A DNA stretch of 64,000 nt from Escherichia phage vB_Eco_F27. How positions within the stretch are numbered: position 1 is the first letter of the stretch; each line of letters begins with the position of its first letter. The stretch is taken from the sequence record OP870146.1; one strand, written 5' to 3'. Both the position numbers and the translations under genes were made by a program. Positions 4,017 to 11,029 of the stretch are shown here, one piece after another. The notes under the pieces are model-generated. The model made no database searches. It was not told where the DNA came from and saw only the letters and a list, made by a program, of their open reading frames with translations.

Positions 4017-4322
4017 TTATTTTCCTCGACATTCTTTAATGAAATTTTCTAGATTGGTAGATTCAATAGCTTTTTTACGAGCTTCAACATGTTCTTCTTC
4101 AGACAATTTACATTTATAATTGACCCAGACATTATGGTCGAAACTAGTCGTGGCATATAATAACAAAGCTCCGACGAATAATAAAAACGGTGATAAGAAT
4201 ATACAACCAGGCACACCATCCATACTGTAAGCCTTTTGTAATACTGCAACAGAAAGAGTTGCGTAAAAAAGTGATGCAAATATTGTTAAAAGACCAATTC
4301 GGTTGGTTTCGCCTAATTTCAT
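4017..4322 (-). CDS. small membrane protein, C-terminal ENFIKECRGK tail, 101 aa
   Basis: ORF track; ATG 4320-4322 with GAGGAG SD; early promoter immediately upstream; hydrophobic segments. Confidence 0.55.
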   Translation of the reverse strand: MKLGETNRIGLLTIFASLFYATLSVAVLQKAYSMDGVPGCIFLSPFLLFVGALLLYATTSFDHNVWVNYKCKLSEEEHVEARKKAIESTNLENFIKECRGK

Positions 4323-4392: not shown

Positions 4393-5349
4393 TTATTTGA
4401 AAGGTTTTACCATATGGAAATTTTGTTTGAAACGTTTGACGTAATCGTCATGTCCTAAGCTTTGGTACATACTTACTACTTTGCTGTAGTTTTCCCAGGC
4501 GTATTCACGGAACCAACCGGAGGTGATGCTTGTGCAGACTTTTTCTAATGCCATCATGAAACTGGCTTCAGGGTTAATTTTAAAGTCATTAGGAATCTGA
4601 GAACGTTCTAATGCTAGTACACATGATTCTTCATATACACCGGCCAATTTGACCATTTCTGGTAACGATTCGAACTTCTCGCGTGAGGTCATGACTTCAG
4701 AACCGTCTTTCATATAAAATGTATAAGCCGGACGGTCTGTTAGTGCAATGGCTTCATGAATAGTATCATGGTCATATGTATAGATGTCATCTTTAAAGAA
4801 CGCACTTTTAGAAGTGTCAAGAACCGGGTGAGCATAGTTCAAGGTTTCTTTCTGGCGTTTCAGCATAATTTCAGTAAGTTCATCGTTCAGTGTAACACCT
4901 TTACCACGAAGATACTGAATATGGTTCATAGTCTTTAAAAAGAATGGATTATTTTTCTTGAAACGATGAGACATCTTAATTGCAAGACATATCTCAGGAG
5001 TTGCCCAGTAAAACCCGTTCAAACGGTCTTTAGTCAAATTTTTCTTGGCGTATTTTAAAAGGTCATAAGAAGACGTGAAATCTTCAGGAGTGAGTTCACC
5101 GACTAATTCACGGACATTAGTGATTGCCGGAACAATATATGCTTCAAAATGAGTTTCGCGTCCATTATGGAAGCATTTGAAAACTTGGACATCAGGGTTA
5201 TCTTGGTGAACATATACACCCATCATTTGATTTTTGAATGCATTCCAAGAACCTTGGTCCGCAATAAAGTCCCAATCGCTATTTTTGATAGCGCTAGAAT
5301 CAATAAGACCATGATAGTGAAGTGCACGAGAACCAATAACTAACATCAT
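4393..5349 (-). CDS. hypothetical early protein, 318 aa; possible nucleotidyltransferase-like N-terminus
   Basis: ORF track; ATG-ATG start with GAGGAAA SD; N-terminal LVIGSRALHYHGLIDSSAIKNSDWDF resembles a GS...DxD motif (weak). Confidence 0.5.
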   Translation of the reverse strand: MMLVIGSRALHYHGLIDSSAIKNSDWDFIADQGSWNAFKNQMMGVYVHQDNPDVQVFKCFHNGRETHFEAYIVPAITNVRELVGELTPEDFTSSYDLLKYAKKNLTKDRLNGFYWATPEICLAIKMSHRFKKNNPFFLKTMNHIQYLRGKGVTLNDELTEIMLKRQKETLNYAHPVLDTSKSAFFKDDIYTYDHDTIHEAIALTDRPAYTFYMKDGSEVMTSREKFESLPEMVKLAGVYEESCVLALERSQIPNDFKINPEASFMMALEKVCTSITSGWFREYAWENYSKVVSMYQSLGHDDYVKRFKQNFHMVKPFK

Positions 5350-5377: not shown

Positions 5378-5629
5378 TTAAATTTCACGACATGCGATAT
5401 TATATTCGTCCCAGAGGTCATCGTGTGAAGCCTCTACCAATGGAACGATTGTACCGTTTATGTCTTCATTATAAGGGCAAATTGTACAGTGCGCATCTTC
5501 GAATCGGATGCCTTTGTGTTCAGATTTTTTATAACGCATATCGAATATCTTTGCAAACTTTTCACGAGTAATGGTTTTAGCAACCACTTTGGTTCCGATA
5601 CTTTCGTAATAAATCATTGTGGACTCCAT
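5378..5629 (-). CDS. hypothetical protein, 83 aa
   Basis: ORF track; ATG 5627-5629; early promoter upstream. Confidence 0.45.
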   Translation of the reverse strand: MESTMIYYESIGTKVVAKTITREKFAKIFDMRYKKSEHKGIRFEDAHCTICPYNEDINGTIVPLVEASHDDLWDEYNIACREI

Positions 5630-5645
5630 TTAATTTGATAGGACT

Positions 5646-5674
5646 ACTATAACATAGCCCTATCTTGTTGTAAA
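5646..5674 (-). promoter_or_regulatory. early promoter (-35 TTTACA / -10 TATAGT)
   Basis: Same architecture and spacing as 4351-4379. Confidence 0.5.
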
Positions 5675-5679
5675 CTGTT

Positions 5680-5877
5680 TTAGCAAGAATAACTAGATGA
5701 TACCCAGCCTTGAACAGTGATACTATTATGGGATAATGAGATCGCGTCCTGGAGATTCAGACCTGCGTTATCTTCAATCCATAATGTAACTTCTTCGCGT
5801 TCTTCTGTTGCAATTTGGAACAGGTTTTCCAGAGCAGCTACTGCCGTACGTACAGCACAATCTAATTCACGAGACAT
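5680..5877 (-). CDS. small protein, tandem paralog A (C-terminal QGWVSSSYSC), 65 aa
   Basis: ATG 5875-5877 with AAGGAAAC SD overlapping the stop of the upstream paralog. Confidence 0.55.
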   Translation of the reverse strand: MSRELDCAVRTAVAALENLFQIATEEREEVTLWIEDNAGLNLQDAISLSHNSITVQGWVSSSYSC

Positions 5878-5886
5878 ATTGTTTCC

Positions 5887-6159
5887 TTAGCAAGTGTGAG
5901 AAGATGCGACCCAACCACCAGTTTCGAGGCTCAGGTTGTAGTCGTATTGGTAAACGTCAGCCCATTCAGCATAGCCGTTTTTTGTACAACGTTCAAGATC
6001 GGCTTTAAGATGTCCGGGTGAATGATAGGTTCCACCCATACCATAAGCTGGATACAAGTCGAATGTTGTGTTTTGTTTATCAGCAATTTCTTTGGCAGCC
6101 TCAATAGCTGCATAGATTTTTGCTACAGCTTCAGCCAGTTCGGTTTGTTCTTTAGACAT
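5887..6159 (-). CDS. small protein, tandem paralog B (C-terminal GGWVASSHTC), 90 aa
   Basis: ATG 6157-6159 with AAGGAA SD. Confidence 0.55.
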   Translation of the reverse strand: MSKEQTELAEAVAKIYAAIEAAKEIADKQNTTFDLYPAYGMGGTYHSPGHLKADLERCTKNGYAEWADVYQYDYNLSLETGGWVASSHTC

Positions 6160-6168
6160 AATGATTCC

Positions 6169-6474
6169 TTAGCACAACGCAGAAGACGAAACCCAAGCAC
6201 CTTCAGTAATAACGTAACCATTACCTTCACGCTTAACATCGCCACCATTATTTTCAATTTCATCTTTCATCCACTGGGATACGATTTCACCCTTAGGATA
6301 ATAAGTACGACCACTACCATAATCACCTACAGAAAATGATACGGCATATTGGTCTGCGATCTTTGTTGCTTCTTCTTCGATACGTTCAGCTTGATTCAGA
6401 AGTTTATAAATTGCATCTGAAGCGGATTTGGCATCATTAAACTCTGGTACTTTAATTTCAATAATCTTACTCAT
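6169..6474 (-). CDS. small protein, tandem paralog C (C-terminal GAWVSSSALC), 101 aa
   Basis: ATG 6472-6474 with AAGGAATG SD; ATGA overlap with upstream gene. Confidence 0.55.
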   Translation of the reverse strand: MSKIIEIKVPEFNDAKSASDAIYKLLNQAERIEEEATKIADQYAVSFSVGDYGSGRTYYPKGEIVSQWMKDEIENNGGDVKREGNGYVITEGAWVSSSALC

Positions 6475-6830
6475 TTTCTACATTCCTTAATAAAGTTTTC
6501 GATTGTTTCATTTTCACGTCTAGCTAGGAGTTCATTATAACTAATCGTTTGAGAAGCGTAAACCTTTTTATTTTTCTTGTTGTGGTTTATAAAATCGTAG
6601 TAAAAATAGACTACAGTACAAAATGATGCGATGGATGCAAAGGCTTGGGTATACCGTAAGTCCTGCCATTGGTCTGTGAATCCACCAGTGTTCCCTATAA
6701 ATCCTAACACAACGCCGTCAATAAGAAATCCAACTAATCCAAAGGCAAATCCCATGCCAATACTCATAATAAAAATTAGAATGTTCTCACCAAGAGAAGG
6801 CCATACGGTTAAGAGTTGAGGCTTTTGCAT
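6471..6830 (-). CDS. small membrane protein, C-terminal ENFIKECRK tail, 119 aa
   Basis: ATG 6828-6830 with AAGGAAAT SD; hydrophobic segments LIFIMSIGMGFAFGLVGFLIDGVVLGFIG. Confidence 0.55.
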   Translation of the reverse strand: MQKPQLLTVWPSLGENILIFIMSIGMGFAFGLVGFLIDGVVLGFIGNTGGFTDQWQDLRYTQAFASIASFCTVVYFYYDFINHNKKNKKVYASQTISYNELLARRENETIENFIKECRK

Positions 6831-7204
6831 CTTATTTCCTTAACGAATTCCATAGCTTCTTCATATTCATACTTTTTAACAGCTTCATCATACTGAGCTT
6901 GGGCTTTTGCGCACTGAACTTTCCATTCGCGTACTCGAGCTCTATAATGACGGCCTTGGTGCCAATATCCTGCCCAATTAATAGGCATTAATAAAAATGG
7001 CACAATAAACGGCCCGGCTATAATAAGTAAAAACACTGCATCAGACGATATAACTTCACTAGAATCTAAAACAGCTCCTATAATCATAAAGATTAAAAAT
7101 GCTAAAGCTAAAATAGGGCCAAATAGTACTTCATTTGGGATTAATTTACGTTTGTATTCGTATGCCCAGGGCTTAATTGGCATGTACAGGGTTGGCTTTG
7201 ACAT
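6809..7204 (-). CDS. small membrane protein (C-terminal EFVKEIRCK), about 131 aa from ATG 7202-7204
   Basis: ORF track trimmed; two hydrophobic segments; start embedded in the ECR-encoding tail of the upstream gene. Confidence 0.45.
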   Translation of the reverse strand: MSKPTLYMPIKPWAYEYKRKLIPNEVLFGPILALAFLIFMIIGAVLDSSEVISSDAVFLLIIAGPFIVPFLLMPINWAGYWHQGRHYRARVREWKVQCAKAQAQYDEAVKKYEYEEAMEFVKEIRCKSLNS

Positions 7205-7775
7205 ATTCTCTACATTCCATAATAAATTGCTCAAGGATTAAATTGTTAGTGAAATTAGGACTAACAACCATAGTTTCATAAAGCGCATCAATAGCACTTA
7301 AAGCATCAACTCTTTTAAGCAAAGGCTTGCCTTCATACATAGTTTCAGAATCGATGATTAACGTAAAGTAATATTTTTTATTATCGACTAGAACTTCCGT
7401 ATCGATATAAAACATATTAGACCTCAGAAGCTTATCTCTAAAACCATAATAATCTTCAGAGCGTTCGCTGATATATTCCCATTCAGTGTTTAAACAACAA
7501 ACAGACCATGTAGGAGCAACGAAATCGGTGAATCTAATATCATGGTCTGCAACTAGTTTAGCAATAGCTCCGATATCATGAATCATAATACCTGGGGCTA
7601 ATAAAGATTTTCTGCTATGGCTAGCCGTTTTCTCAGTAGTCTCATAAGAAGACGACCAGTACCATTTACGTCCAGTTGCAACATATCGTAATGAATCAAC
7701 TAAAGATGTAGGTGGATTTACCTTATCTCGGAACTCTTCGAACATTGAGTCAATATCATTATTTTGGTTTCGCAT
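7173..7775 (-). CDS. hypothetical protein with FIMECR motif near C-terminus, 200 aa
   Basis: ORF track trimmed to ATG 7773-7775 with AAGGAG SD. Confidence 0.5.
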   Translation of the reverse strand: MRNQNNDIDSMFEEFRDKVNPPTSLVDSLRYVATGRKWYWSSSYETTEKTASHSRKSLLAPGIMIHDIGAIAKLVADHDIRFTDFVAPTWSVCCLNTEWEYISERSEDYYGFRDKLLRSNMFYIDTEVLVDNKKYYFTLIIDSETMYEGKPLLKRVDALSAIDALYETMVVSPNFTNNLILEQFIMECREYVKANPVHAN

Positions 7776-7798
7776 GTTAACTCCTTTATTATCCAAAA

Positions 7799-10777: not shown

Positions 10778-10854
<77 letters not shown>

Positions 10855-10954: not shown

Positions 10955-11029
10955 TGGTGGCCCTGGCTGGTTTCGATCCAGCTACCTATCAGTTATGAGC
11001 TGACAGCTCTCCCATTGAGCTACAGGGCC
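10955..11029 (-). tRNA. tRNA with CAU anticodon (elongator Met, or Ile2 if lysidine-modified), 75 nt, CCA encoded
   Basis: Manual cloverleaf: acceptor GGCCCTG/CAGGGCC, D-arm GCTC-AATGGGA-GAGC, anticodon loop CTCATAA, T-arm GCTGG-ATCGAAA-CCAGC; ends resemble E. coli tRNA-Ile2. Confidence 0.85.

Follow-up and report, generated by a model that had tools for sequence, protein, structure and literature searches.

Tandem small proteins with a Trp/Ser-Ser/terminal-Cys tail are linked to a predicted nucleotidyltransferase gene in T4-like and other large phages

Three consecutive small genes in Escherichia phage vB_Eco_F27 encode paralogous proteins whose shared C-terminal tail, with a Trp, a Ser-Ser pair, and a terminal Cys, is constrained at the protein level. 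The family to which they belong appears to be restricted to phages, and it is linked near-obligatorily to a gene for a DUF7277+DUF7275 protein predicted to have a Pol-beta nucleotidyltransferase fold. The evidence points to a two-part phage module. Our best reading is that the small proteins serve the enzyme as regulators, adaptors, or substrates, a mode of action that we infer, and the explanation ranked first, with a probability of roughly 0.4, is that they are partner subunits that dock on the nucleotidyltransferase and regulate or retarget it.

The window is the whole stretch of DNA analyzed, 64,000 nucleotides of the phage record OP870146.1. At 98.8% identity, the region matches Escherichia phage APCEc01 and further members of Mosigvirus (RB69-like, T4-type). 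In annotated relatives, the array lies between e.2 and e.3 in a small early-gene block, with lysozyme and tRNA genes adjoining; its three open reading frames (ORFs) correspond to RB69ORF136c-139c, each annotated as a hypothetical protein. In the window, genes for tRNA-Arg(tct) and tRNA-Met(cat) are found at 10778-10854 and 10955-11029 on the minus strand, about 4.3 kb upstream of the array and on the same strand. The features of the array and its surroundings are as follows, in the direction of transcription.

6534..6562, minus strand: promoter-like site (gTTTACGCTT...TATAAT) that precedes the array and falls within the 3' end of e.3; 10/12 in a consensus scan, a consensus match only
6169..6474, minus strand: paralogue 1, 101 aa, long form, with a helix, a YGSGRTYYP hairpin, an insert, and the tail GAWVSSSALC
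6160..6168, minus strand: 9-nt spacer GGAATCATT, forming TAAGGAA with the upstream TAA
5887..6159, minus strand: paralogue 2, 90 aa, long form, with a YGMGGTYHSP hairpin and the tail GGWVASSHTC
5878..5886, minus strand: 9-nt spacer GGAAACAAT, forming TAAGGAA with the upstream TAA, a Shine-Dalgarno/stop overlap
5680..5877, minus strand: paralogue 3, 65 aa, short form, with a helix and the tail QGWVSSSYSC, lacking the YGxGG hairpin
5646..5674, minus strand: T4 early-like promoter directly after the 65-aa gene (TTTACA-17-TATAGT with a TG; consensus scan)
5378..5629, minus strand: intervening 83-aa gene between the array and the enzyme gene, PHROG 3723, function not assigned
4393..5349, minus strand: partner gene, 318 aa, DUF7277+DUF7275, RB69ORF134c orthologue, predicted Pol-beta-fold nucleotidyltransferase of the MenT/AbiEii/ANT type

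The coordinates, minus-strand orientation, and lengths (65, 90, and 101 aa) of the three ORFs, together with their tails, were confirmed from the sequence as given in a first-pass annotation of this DNA. The same annotation had described 9-nt separations in which each Shine-Dalgarno sequence overlaps the preceding stop codon, and this is what we see: the junctions read tgc TAA GGAATCATT ATG and tgc TAA GGAAACAAT ATG, with TAAGGAA at both and the AAGGA Shine-Dalgarno beginning within the prior stop codon. At the head of the array, the start of the 101-aa gene and the stop of e.3 overlap as ATGA (6471-6474). A common MS(K/R)E start had also been proposed, from which the 101-aa protein departs by starting MSKI. 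When all six frames of the 64-kb window were scanned, tails of the W..S...C or SS..C kind were present in these three ORFs only.

Both the array and the enzyme unit are probably early in expression, since early or middle promoter-like sites precede each of them. The site at 6534..6562 is a T4 middle-promoter-like element in the annotation of phage SA35RD, and transcription from the early-like promoter at 5646..5674 would cover the 83-aa gene and that of the nucleotidyltransferase. A rho-independent terminator is annotated within this latter interval in a relative; a scan of the window found none there. The 83-aa gene is probably not part of the module because its conservation does not extend beyond close relatives. 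In the window phage, the array and the enzyme gene do not constitute one strict operon, and in many other phages a small gene abuts or overlaps the start of the enzyme gene.

The window also contains a second paralogous set with its own common C-terminal motif, at 4017-4322, 6471-6830, 6809-7234, and 7173-7796, all on the minus strand. The e.3 product ends in ...ENFIKECRK and the RB69ORF133c-like protein in ...ENFIKECRGK, both being predicted membrane proteins, while the ORF at 7173-7796, which annotated relatives list as e.5, has ...EQFIMECREY close to its C-terminus, and that at 6809-7234 (e.4) has ...MEFVKEIRC. In a related phage (L064, 4452-5504), three consecutive proteins have similar ...F(I/V)xxCR(K/R) endings.

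Word-indexed and exhaustive profile searches of 1.84 billion representatives (E<=1e-3) showed that the tail is the hallmark of a large phage family, comprising at least 359 clusters at 50% identity, with matches that always reach the last residue. Members have a median length of 86 aa, nearly all falling between 65 and 150 aa, and are acidic, with a median pI of 4.5 and 84% below pI 5. The family consensus consists of a helix (..EAE.IADEHG..F.F), the motif YGMGGTYYP, a variable acidic insert, and GWVSSSxxC. A C-terminal Cys is present in 136 of 146 representatives, 7 have one extra residue after the Cys, and all three window ORFs end in the family tail W-x-[SAGP]-S-S-x-x-C with the Cys last. 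The long proteins P0175, P0259, and P0298, also returned by the profile search, proved to be repeat or low-complexity false positives. One subfamily carries the motif twice, first as an internal DWxSSSCYGE... and then as a shortened terminal W..SSC or W.ESNC; it was seen just upstream of the enzyme gene at L034 3371-3631, L041 3746-3961, and L069 3209-3454.

Profile matches and sequence comparison bear out the paralogy of the three window genes. The 101-aa and 90-aa proteins match phrog_899 (E 1.3e-22 and 3.5e-19, respectively) and the 65-aa protein matches phrog_4882 (E 7.7e-37), with PHROG 899 and PHROG 4882 both listed without an assigned function. The middles of the proteins had been called divergent, which is accurate only in part: the two longer proteins share the N-terminal amphipathic helix and a YG(M/S)G(G/R)TY(Y/H) hairpin in addition to the tail, and they match the family HMM even without the tail (E 4e-14 for the 101-aa protein and 3e-20 for the 90-aa protein). 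The 65-aa protein has the helix only, scores 3.5 bits against the family once its tail is removed, and resembles the long form mainly through that tail. Searches of Pfam, NCBIfam, and PADLOC with the three proteins gave no meaningful match, no solved fold was found for the family, and no relevant publication came up for DUF7275, DUF7277, the names of the RB69 ORFs, the motifs, or the PHROG ids.

An AlphaFold model of the 101-aa protein (pLDDT 89.5, pTM 0.76) has a long helix at residues 15-43 and a small sheet. Here, the final beta-strand is made of the W-V-S of the tail, SSAL follows as a short turn at the C-terminus, and this block has a pLDDT of 84; in this prediction, the tail belongs to the folded core and is not a loose appendage. 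A back-translated YGMGGTYY pattern run against 185,579 bacterial and archaeal genomes gave 3 chance matches and no family member, and the family appears to be phage-restricted.

Selection on the tail acts at the protein level. One could suppose that the likeness of the tails comes from an overlapping DNA or RNA regulatory element at the stop/Shine-Dalgarno junction rather than from protein function, as TAAGG overlaps follow two of the three window tails and several tails elsewhere. Across 56 distinct homologous tails from the fetched loci, however, synonymous variation is extensive at every conserved codon, which places the constraint on the protein and not on the DNA. Ser(-4) is encoded by all six codons, TCN as well as AGY; the terminal Cys by TGC in 39 tails and TGT in 17; and the Val in the three window tails by gta, gtc, and gtt. 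The Trp is invariant in the 56 tails, and the stop codon and downstream sequence vary, with many homologues ending in TGA or TAG before unrelated sequence. A Shine-Dalgarno sequence directly follows only some of these tails, and the last gene of the window array retains its tail without any such sequence. Codon usage thus rules out the regulatory-DNA explanation, to which we attach a negligible probability; the first-pass annotation had named such an element as what would refute its reading, and the tails show otherwise.

The array had been interpreted as a local triplication followed by diversification, a proposal that did not survive comparison with other phages. Other T4-like phage groups of Enterobacteriaceae have a separate orthologue for every one of the three types: the first of about 100-106 aa ending in ...G(A/V)W(V/I)SSSEMC, the second of 93-94 aa ending in ...GGWVSSSMEC, and the third of 65 aa ending in ...GWQSSSxxC, with GWQSSSYQC in Enterobacter and Klebsiella T4-like phages. 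As these orthologues occur in the same order, comparison of the sequences indicates that the array is old, not a recent local triplication, and that its copy number is plastic. Arrays in very different phages contain from one to nine copies. Four copies with 9-nt spacers are present in an Escherichia-phage group whose enzyme is about 75% identical to that of the window, and two copies with 9-10-nt spacers occur in contigs of 355-371 kb, the 371-kb one being a jumbo phage with 9-nt spacing. In the metagenome-assembled contig L126 (2588-5919), nine tandem paralogues lie directly upstream of a DUF7277/7275 gene, and the array itself is closely preceded by a gene for peptidyl-tRNA hydrolase 2; some tails in this contig are degenerate (GWNSSNC, FWDTSEVCW, and HWDSSSEQC plus an extension). 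Individual copies can also be broken. In RB69 (L131, 3735-4041), the 101-aa copy is frameshifted into ORF138c and ORF139c next to intact genes for the 90-aa protein, the 65-aa protein, and the enzyme, and phage mar005P1 has a frameshifted 90-aa copy (P0012).

The main evidence for a module is the linkage between this family and the DUF7277+DUF7275 gene, which in the window begins 331 nt after the array ends and has the same orientation. We looked at this linkage from both sides. Among IMG/VR loci fetched with one distant jumbo-phage member as the query, all 24 that had a tail ORF and enough 3' flank carried a DUF7275 gene downstream, in the same orientation and 0.1-1.6 kb away, and the distant members P0193, P0231, and P0301 are directly upstream of the enzyme gene. 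From the enzyme side, at least one family ORF (1-6) was present within 3.5 kb in 72 of 80 IMG/VR loci, nearly always upstream; two further loci have divergent family variants, and at six to eight of the 80 no member was detected within this distance. In the loci surveyed, the small proteins never occur without the enzyme, and the enzyme at times occurs without them.

As a control, all same-strand ORFs around the 80 enzymes, which represent 16 clades at 60% identity, were clustered. The small-protein family was found in 14 of the 16 clades (71 loci, 172 ORFs) and the next-best neighbor family in 3, making the small proteins the sole conserved neighbor of the enzyme gene. The pairing recurs in T4-like phages, Otagovirus, Phapecoctavirus, Menderavirus, Acinetobacter and Aeromonas phages, and the contigs of 355-371 kb. 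Deposited genomes with the pair include Pseudomonas phage phiPsa374 (4 copies), E. coli phage phAPEC8 (3 copies), Stenotrophomonas phage Ps15 (small gene downstream), Acinetobacter phage Maestro, and Aeromonas phage B614. Near distant, partial enzyme homologues in Streptomyces, Gordonia, Vibrio, and Roseobacter phages, no family member was detected. The linkage is near-obligatory, and it is a signature of functional coupling and not of the shared ancestry of a gene block.

Two other associations were considered and set aside. A 1.4-kb contig (L124, 94-1352) in which an RlaP gene is followed directly by a tail gene hinted at a second partnership, with RlaP enzymes. The family is missing from 26 of 28 RlaP loci, and its specificity is therefore for the DUF7275 enzyme; in the other two loci, the tail gene abuts a DUF7275 gene. 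Two contigs, L132 and L133 (339-3472), have the order tail gene, DUF7275 enzyme, calcineurin-like phosphoesterase, and RlaP nucleotidyltransferase. A general RNA-repair neighborhood of the enzyme was likewise not confirmed: the one such gene seen repeatedly inside 3.5 kb codes for a metallophosphoesterase (11 of 80 loci), Rnl2 and a phosphoesterase were seen once each, and the link to RNA-repair genes is only sporadic. In several unrelated phages, RNA-repair genes (Rnl1, PNKP, Rnl2, phosphoesterases) lie a few kb from DUF7275, as do NAD-salvage (nicotinamide phosphoribosyltransferase) or Gad2 genes, all sporadically (L003 105-15402; L037 1265-2810; L038 45-917; flanks of L035, L037, and L042).

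The DUF7277+DUF7275 proteins form a family of more than 2,200 members in the metagenome collection and are encoded by 733 of about 50,700 deposited phage genomes, where all are unnamed; no publication, Pfam function, or structure was found for the enzyme or for the small-protein family. Across 25 diverse homologues, G6, S7, D25, D27, and E69 are invariant and correspond to the hG[GS], DhD, and third carboxylate of Pol-beta enzymes, and K125, H128, and R129 are also invariant. The structure model (pLDDT 90, pTM 0.84) predicts a Pol-beta-fold nucleotidyltransferase with a MenT/AbiEii-like fold and its catalytic residues intact. Its closest structural relatives act on tRNA 3' ends or antibiotics, not on proteins, and because relatives such as MenT act there, RNA 3' ends are our best guess, by analogy, for the substrate. 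At the profile level, Pfam matches at E<=0.1 were limited to DUF7275 and DUF7277, with none to DUF1814 or RlaP; the enzyme profile had no MenT or AbiEii match in the PDB; and hhalign gave a probability of 0.4% against an RlaP. The helical DUF7275 lobe (residues 120-305) has invariant H128, H174, H194, D195, H198, E240, E241, C243, E248, and C272, an arrangement suggestive of a metal site or second active site; no match to an HD domain or another known fold was found for this lobe.

We propose that the small proteins work together with the adjacent early nucleotidyltransferase as its partner subunits. The conserved core, with its invariant Trp, Ser-Ser, and terminal Cys, would dock on the enzyme, and docking would gate or retarget nucleotidyl transfer, in a manner resembling the control of MenT1 by MenA1, a helical antitoxin of 68 aa. 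Diversity in what the complex acts on or responds to may then come from the variable insert and from the presence of one to nine copies. This reading is ranked first because the small proteins depend on the enzyme and because the core is invariant where the insert and copy number vary. Their acidic character (median pI 4.5) would suit the binding of an electropositive nucleic-acid cleft, and both the long N-terminal helix and the early or middle promoter-like sites of the two units are in keeping with such a role. We infer the physical binding, the direction of regulation, and the substrate, which by analogy is probably RNA 3' ends. Several points count against a partner role: a promoter-like site, a terminator in a relative, and the unrelated 83-aa gene separate the array from the enzyme; no family member was detected at some enzyme loci or beside the distant homologues from Vibrio phages and phages of Gram-positive hosts; the small proteins have no sequence or fold similarity to MenA1; several paralogues per enzyme are unusual for antitoxins; and the 65-aa form lacks the hairpin motif. 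The frameshifted 101-aa copy beside an intact enzyme gene in RB69 implies that individual copies are dispensable in the laboratory.

Alternatively, the small proteins may be substrates of the enzyme, which would place an NMP on the Ser-Ser of the tail or a Tyr of YGxGGTYY and so switch them on or off. Pol-beta-fold enzymes are known to nucleotidylylate proteins, with GlnD acting on PII, GlnE on glutamine synthetase, and MNT on HEPN toxins. The gene linkage speaks for this idea as much as for partner subunits, the one-sided dependence of the small proteins on the enzyme fits a dependent substrate, and the invariant W, S-4, S-3, and C0, which we count as hydroxyl- or thiol-bearing, sit at the extreme C-terminus. 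Nonetheless, we consider it unlikely, given that the tail is predicted to lie within a folded core and not in a free peptide, and that the closest structural relatives of the enzyme act on tRNA 3' ends or antibiotics and not on proteins. A bolder version, and a long shot, is that the enzyme covalently modifies the C-terminal S-S-S-x-x-C by Ser O-nucleotidylylation, perhaps activating an elimination that leads to a thioether ring from Ser-3 to Cys0, with a metal site formed by H128, H174, H194, H198, C243, and C272 of DUF7275. If this holds, large lytic phages would possess a novel, enzyme-installed type of modification at protein C-termini and apply it to carrier proteins that can be diversified.

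It is also conceivable, if quite unlikely, that the small proteins are independent host-takeover or anti-defense factors that merely co-reside with the nucleotidyltransferase gene in an early accessory island. Their separate transcription unit in the window, the decay of single copies in some phages, and the tandem amplification and hypervariable insert, both typical of arms-race proteins, would all be explained in this way. Mere co-residence does not account for the absence of any other neighbor conserved across enzyme clades (at best 3 of 16, against 14 of 16), for adjacency between phage groups that have no other local gene order in common, or for the many members that abut or overlap the start of the enzyme gene. 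Finally, the tails could be precursors of processed or cross-linked, RiPP-like peptides, with a GG or GA site before WVxSSxxC. The S-x-x-C-COOH spacing resembles the one in C-terminal rings of the epidermin type, most members have G-G, G-A, or x-G before the Trp, and Ser(-3)-x-x-Cys(0) is invariant. We regard this as highly improbable. In RiPP families it is the leader that is conserved and the core that varies, whereas here the putative core is conserved and the variable part lies upstream; the neighbors that were tested carry no domain of a dehydratase, cyclase, decarboxylase, radical-SAM enzyme, peptidase, or exporter; and the structure prediction places the tail inside the folded domain.

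Bacterial toxins able to disable tRNAs and to abort phage infection are the nearest structural relatives of the enzyme. A phage version with amplifiable partners could be a host-shutoff weapon held in check by the small proteins, a counter-defense or RNA-end repair device, or a protein-modification system. The Trp/Ser-Ser/terminal-Cys signature and the one-to-one linkage make these early "hypothetical" genes of T4-like and jumbo phages testable.

Among known systems, several pair a nucleotidyltransferase with a dedicated protein. In MNT-HEPN, GlnD-PII, and GlnE-GS, a Pol-beta nucleotidyltransferase is accompanied by a protein with a conserved hydroxyl acceptor; no homology to these was detected, and the acceptor residue and modification in the phage proteins are hypothetical. 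RlaP (PF10127) is an RNA-ligase-associated nucleotidyltransferase that adds 1-2 NMP to RNA 3'-OH ends (PMC12776372; PMC7824862). It is likewise a phage-borne Pol-beta enzyme on RNA ends, and in L132 and L133 it is encoded about 0.9 kb downstream of the tail-gene and DUF7275 pair, but the window enzyme has no profile similarity to it. AbiEii is the abortive-infection member of the MenT nucleotidyltransferase family (PMC3985639), and the type IV AbiEi-AbiEii system, MenT3, and MenT4 have in common with the phage enzyme the nucleotidyltransferase fold, hG[GS] and DxD motifs, and a C-terminal helical lobe (PMC3985639, PMC7450476). Their partners AbiEi and MenA3/4 are large wHTH proteins, whereas those of the phage enzyme are small and acidic, and AbiE is a host defense, whereas the DUF7275 module is phage-encoded and probably early.

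The nearest known arrangement, a small protein with a MenT-type enzyme, is MenAT1, the type VII-like MenA1-MenT1 system of Mycobacterium tuberculosis. MenT toxins add nucleotides to tRNA 3' ends (PMC10435456, PMC11375011, PMC7450476), and MenA1, a small helical protein of 68 aa encoded upstream of MenT1, obstructs the active site and prompts the enzyme to autophosphorylate its motif-I Thr (PMC10435456, PMC11375011). The likeness lies in a small protein encoded upstream of a MenT-fold nucleotidyltransferase. Unlike MenT1, the phage enzyme is not a DUF1814 member at the sequence level, and toxin and antitoxin roles are putative here. The phage small proteins, for their part, have no sequence or fold similarity to MenA1; they add a predicted beta-domain with YGxGGTYYP and GWxSSSxxC motifs, and they are found as one to nine tandem paralogues in lytic phages rather than on bacterial chromosomes. 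What is new relative to MenAT1 is therefore a phage-borne pairing in which the partner is unrelated to MenA1, bears a terminal Trp/Ser-Ser/Cys signature, and is arrayed in up to nine copies.
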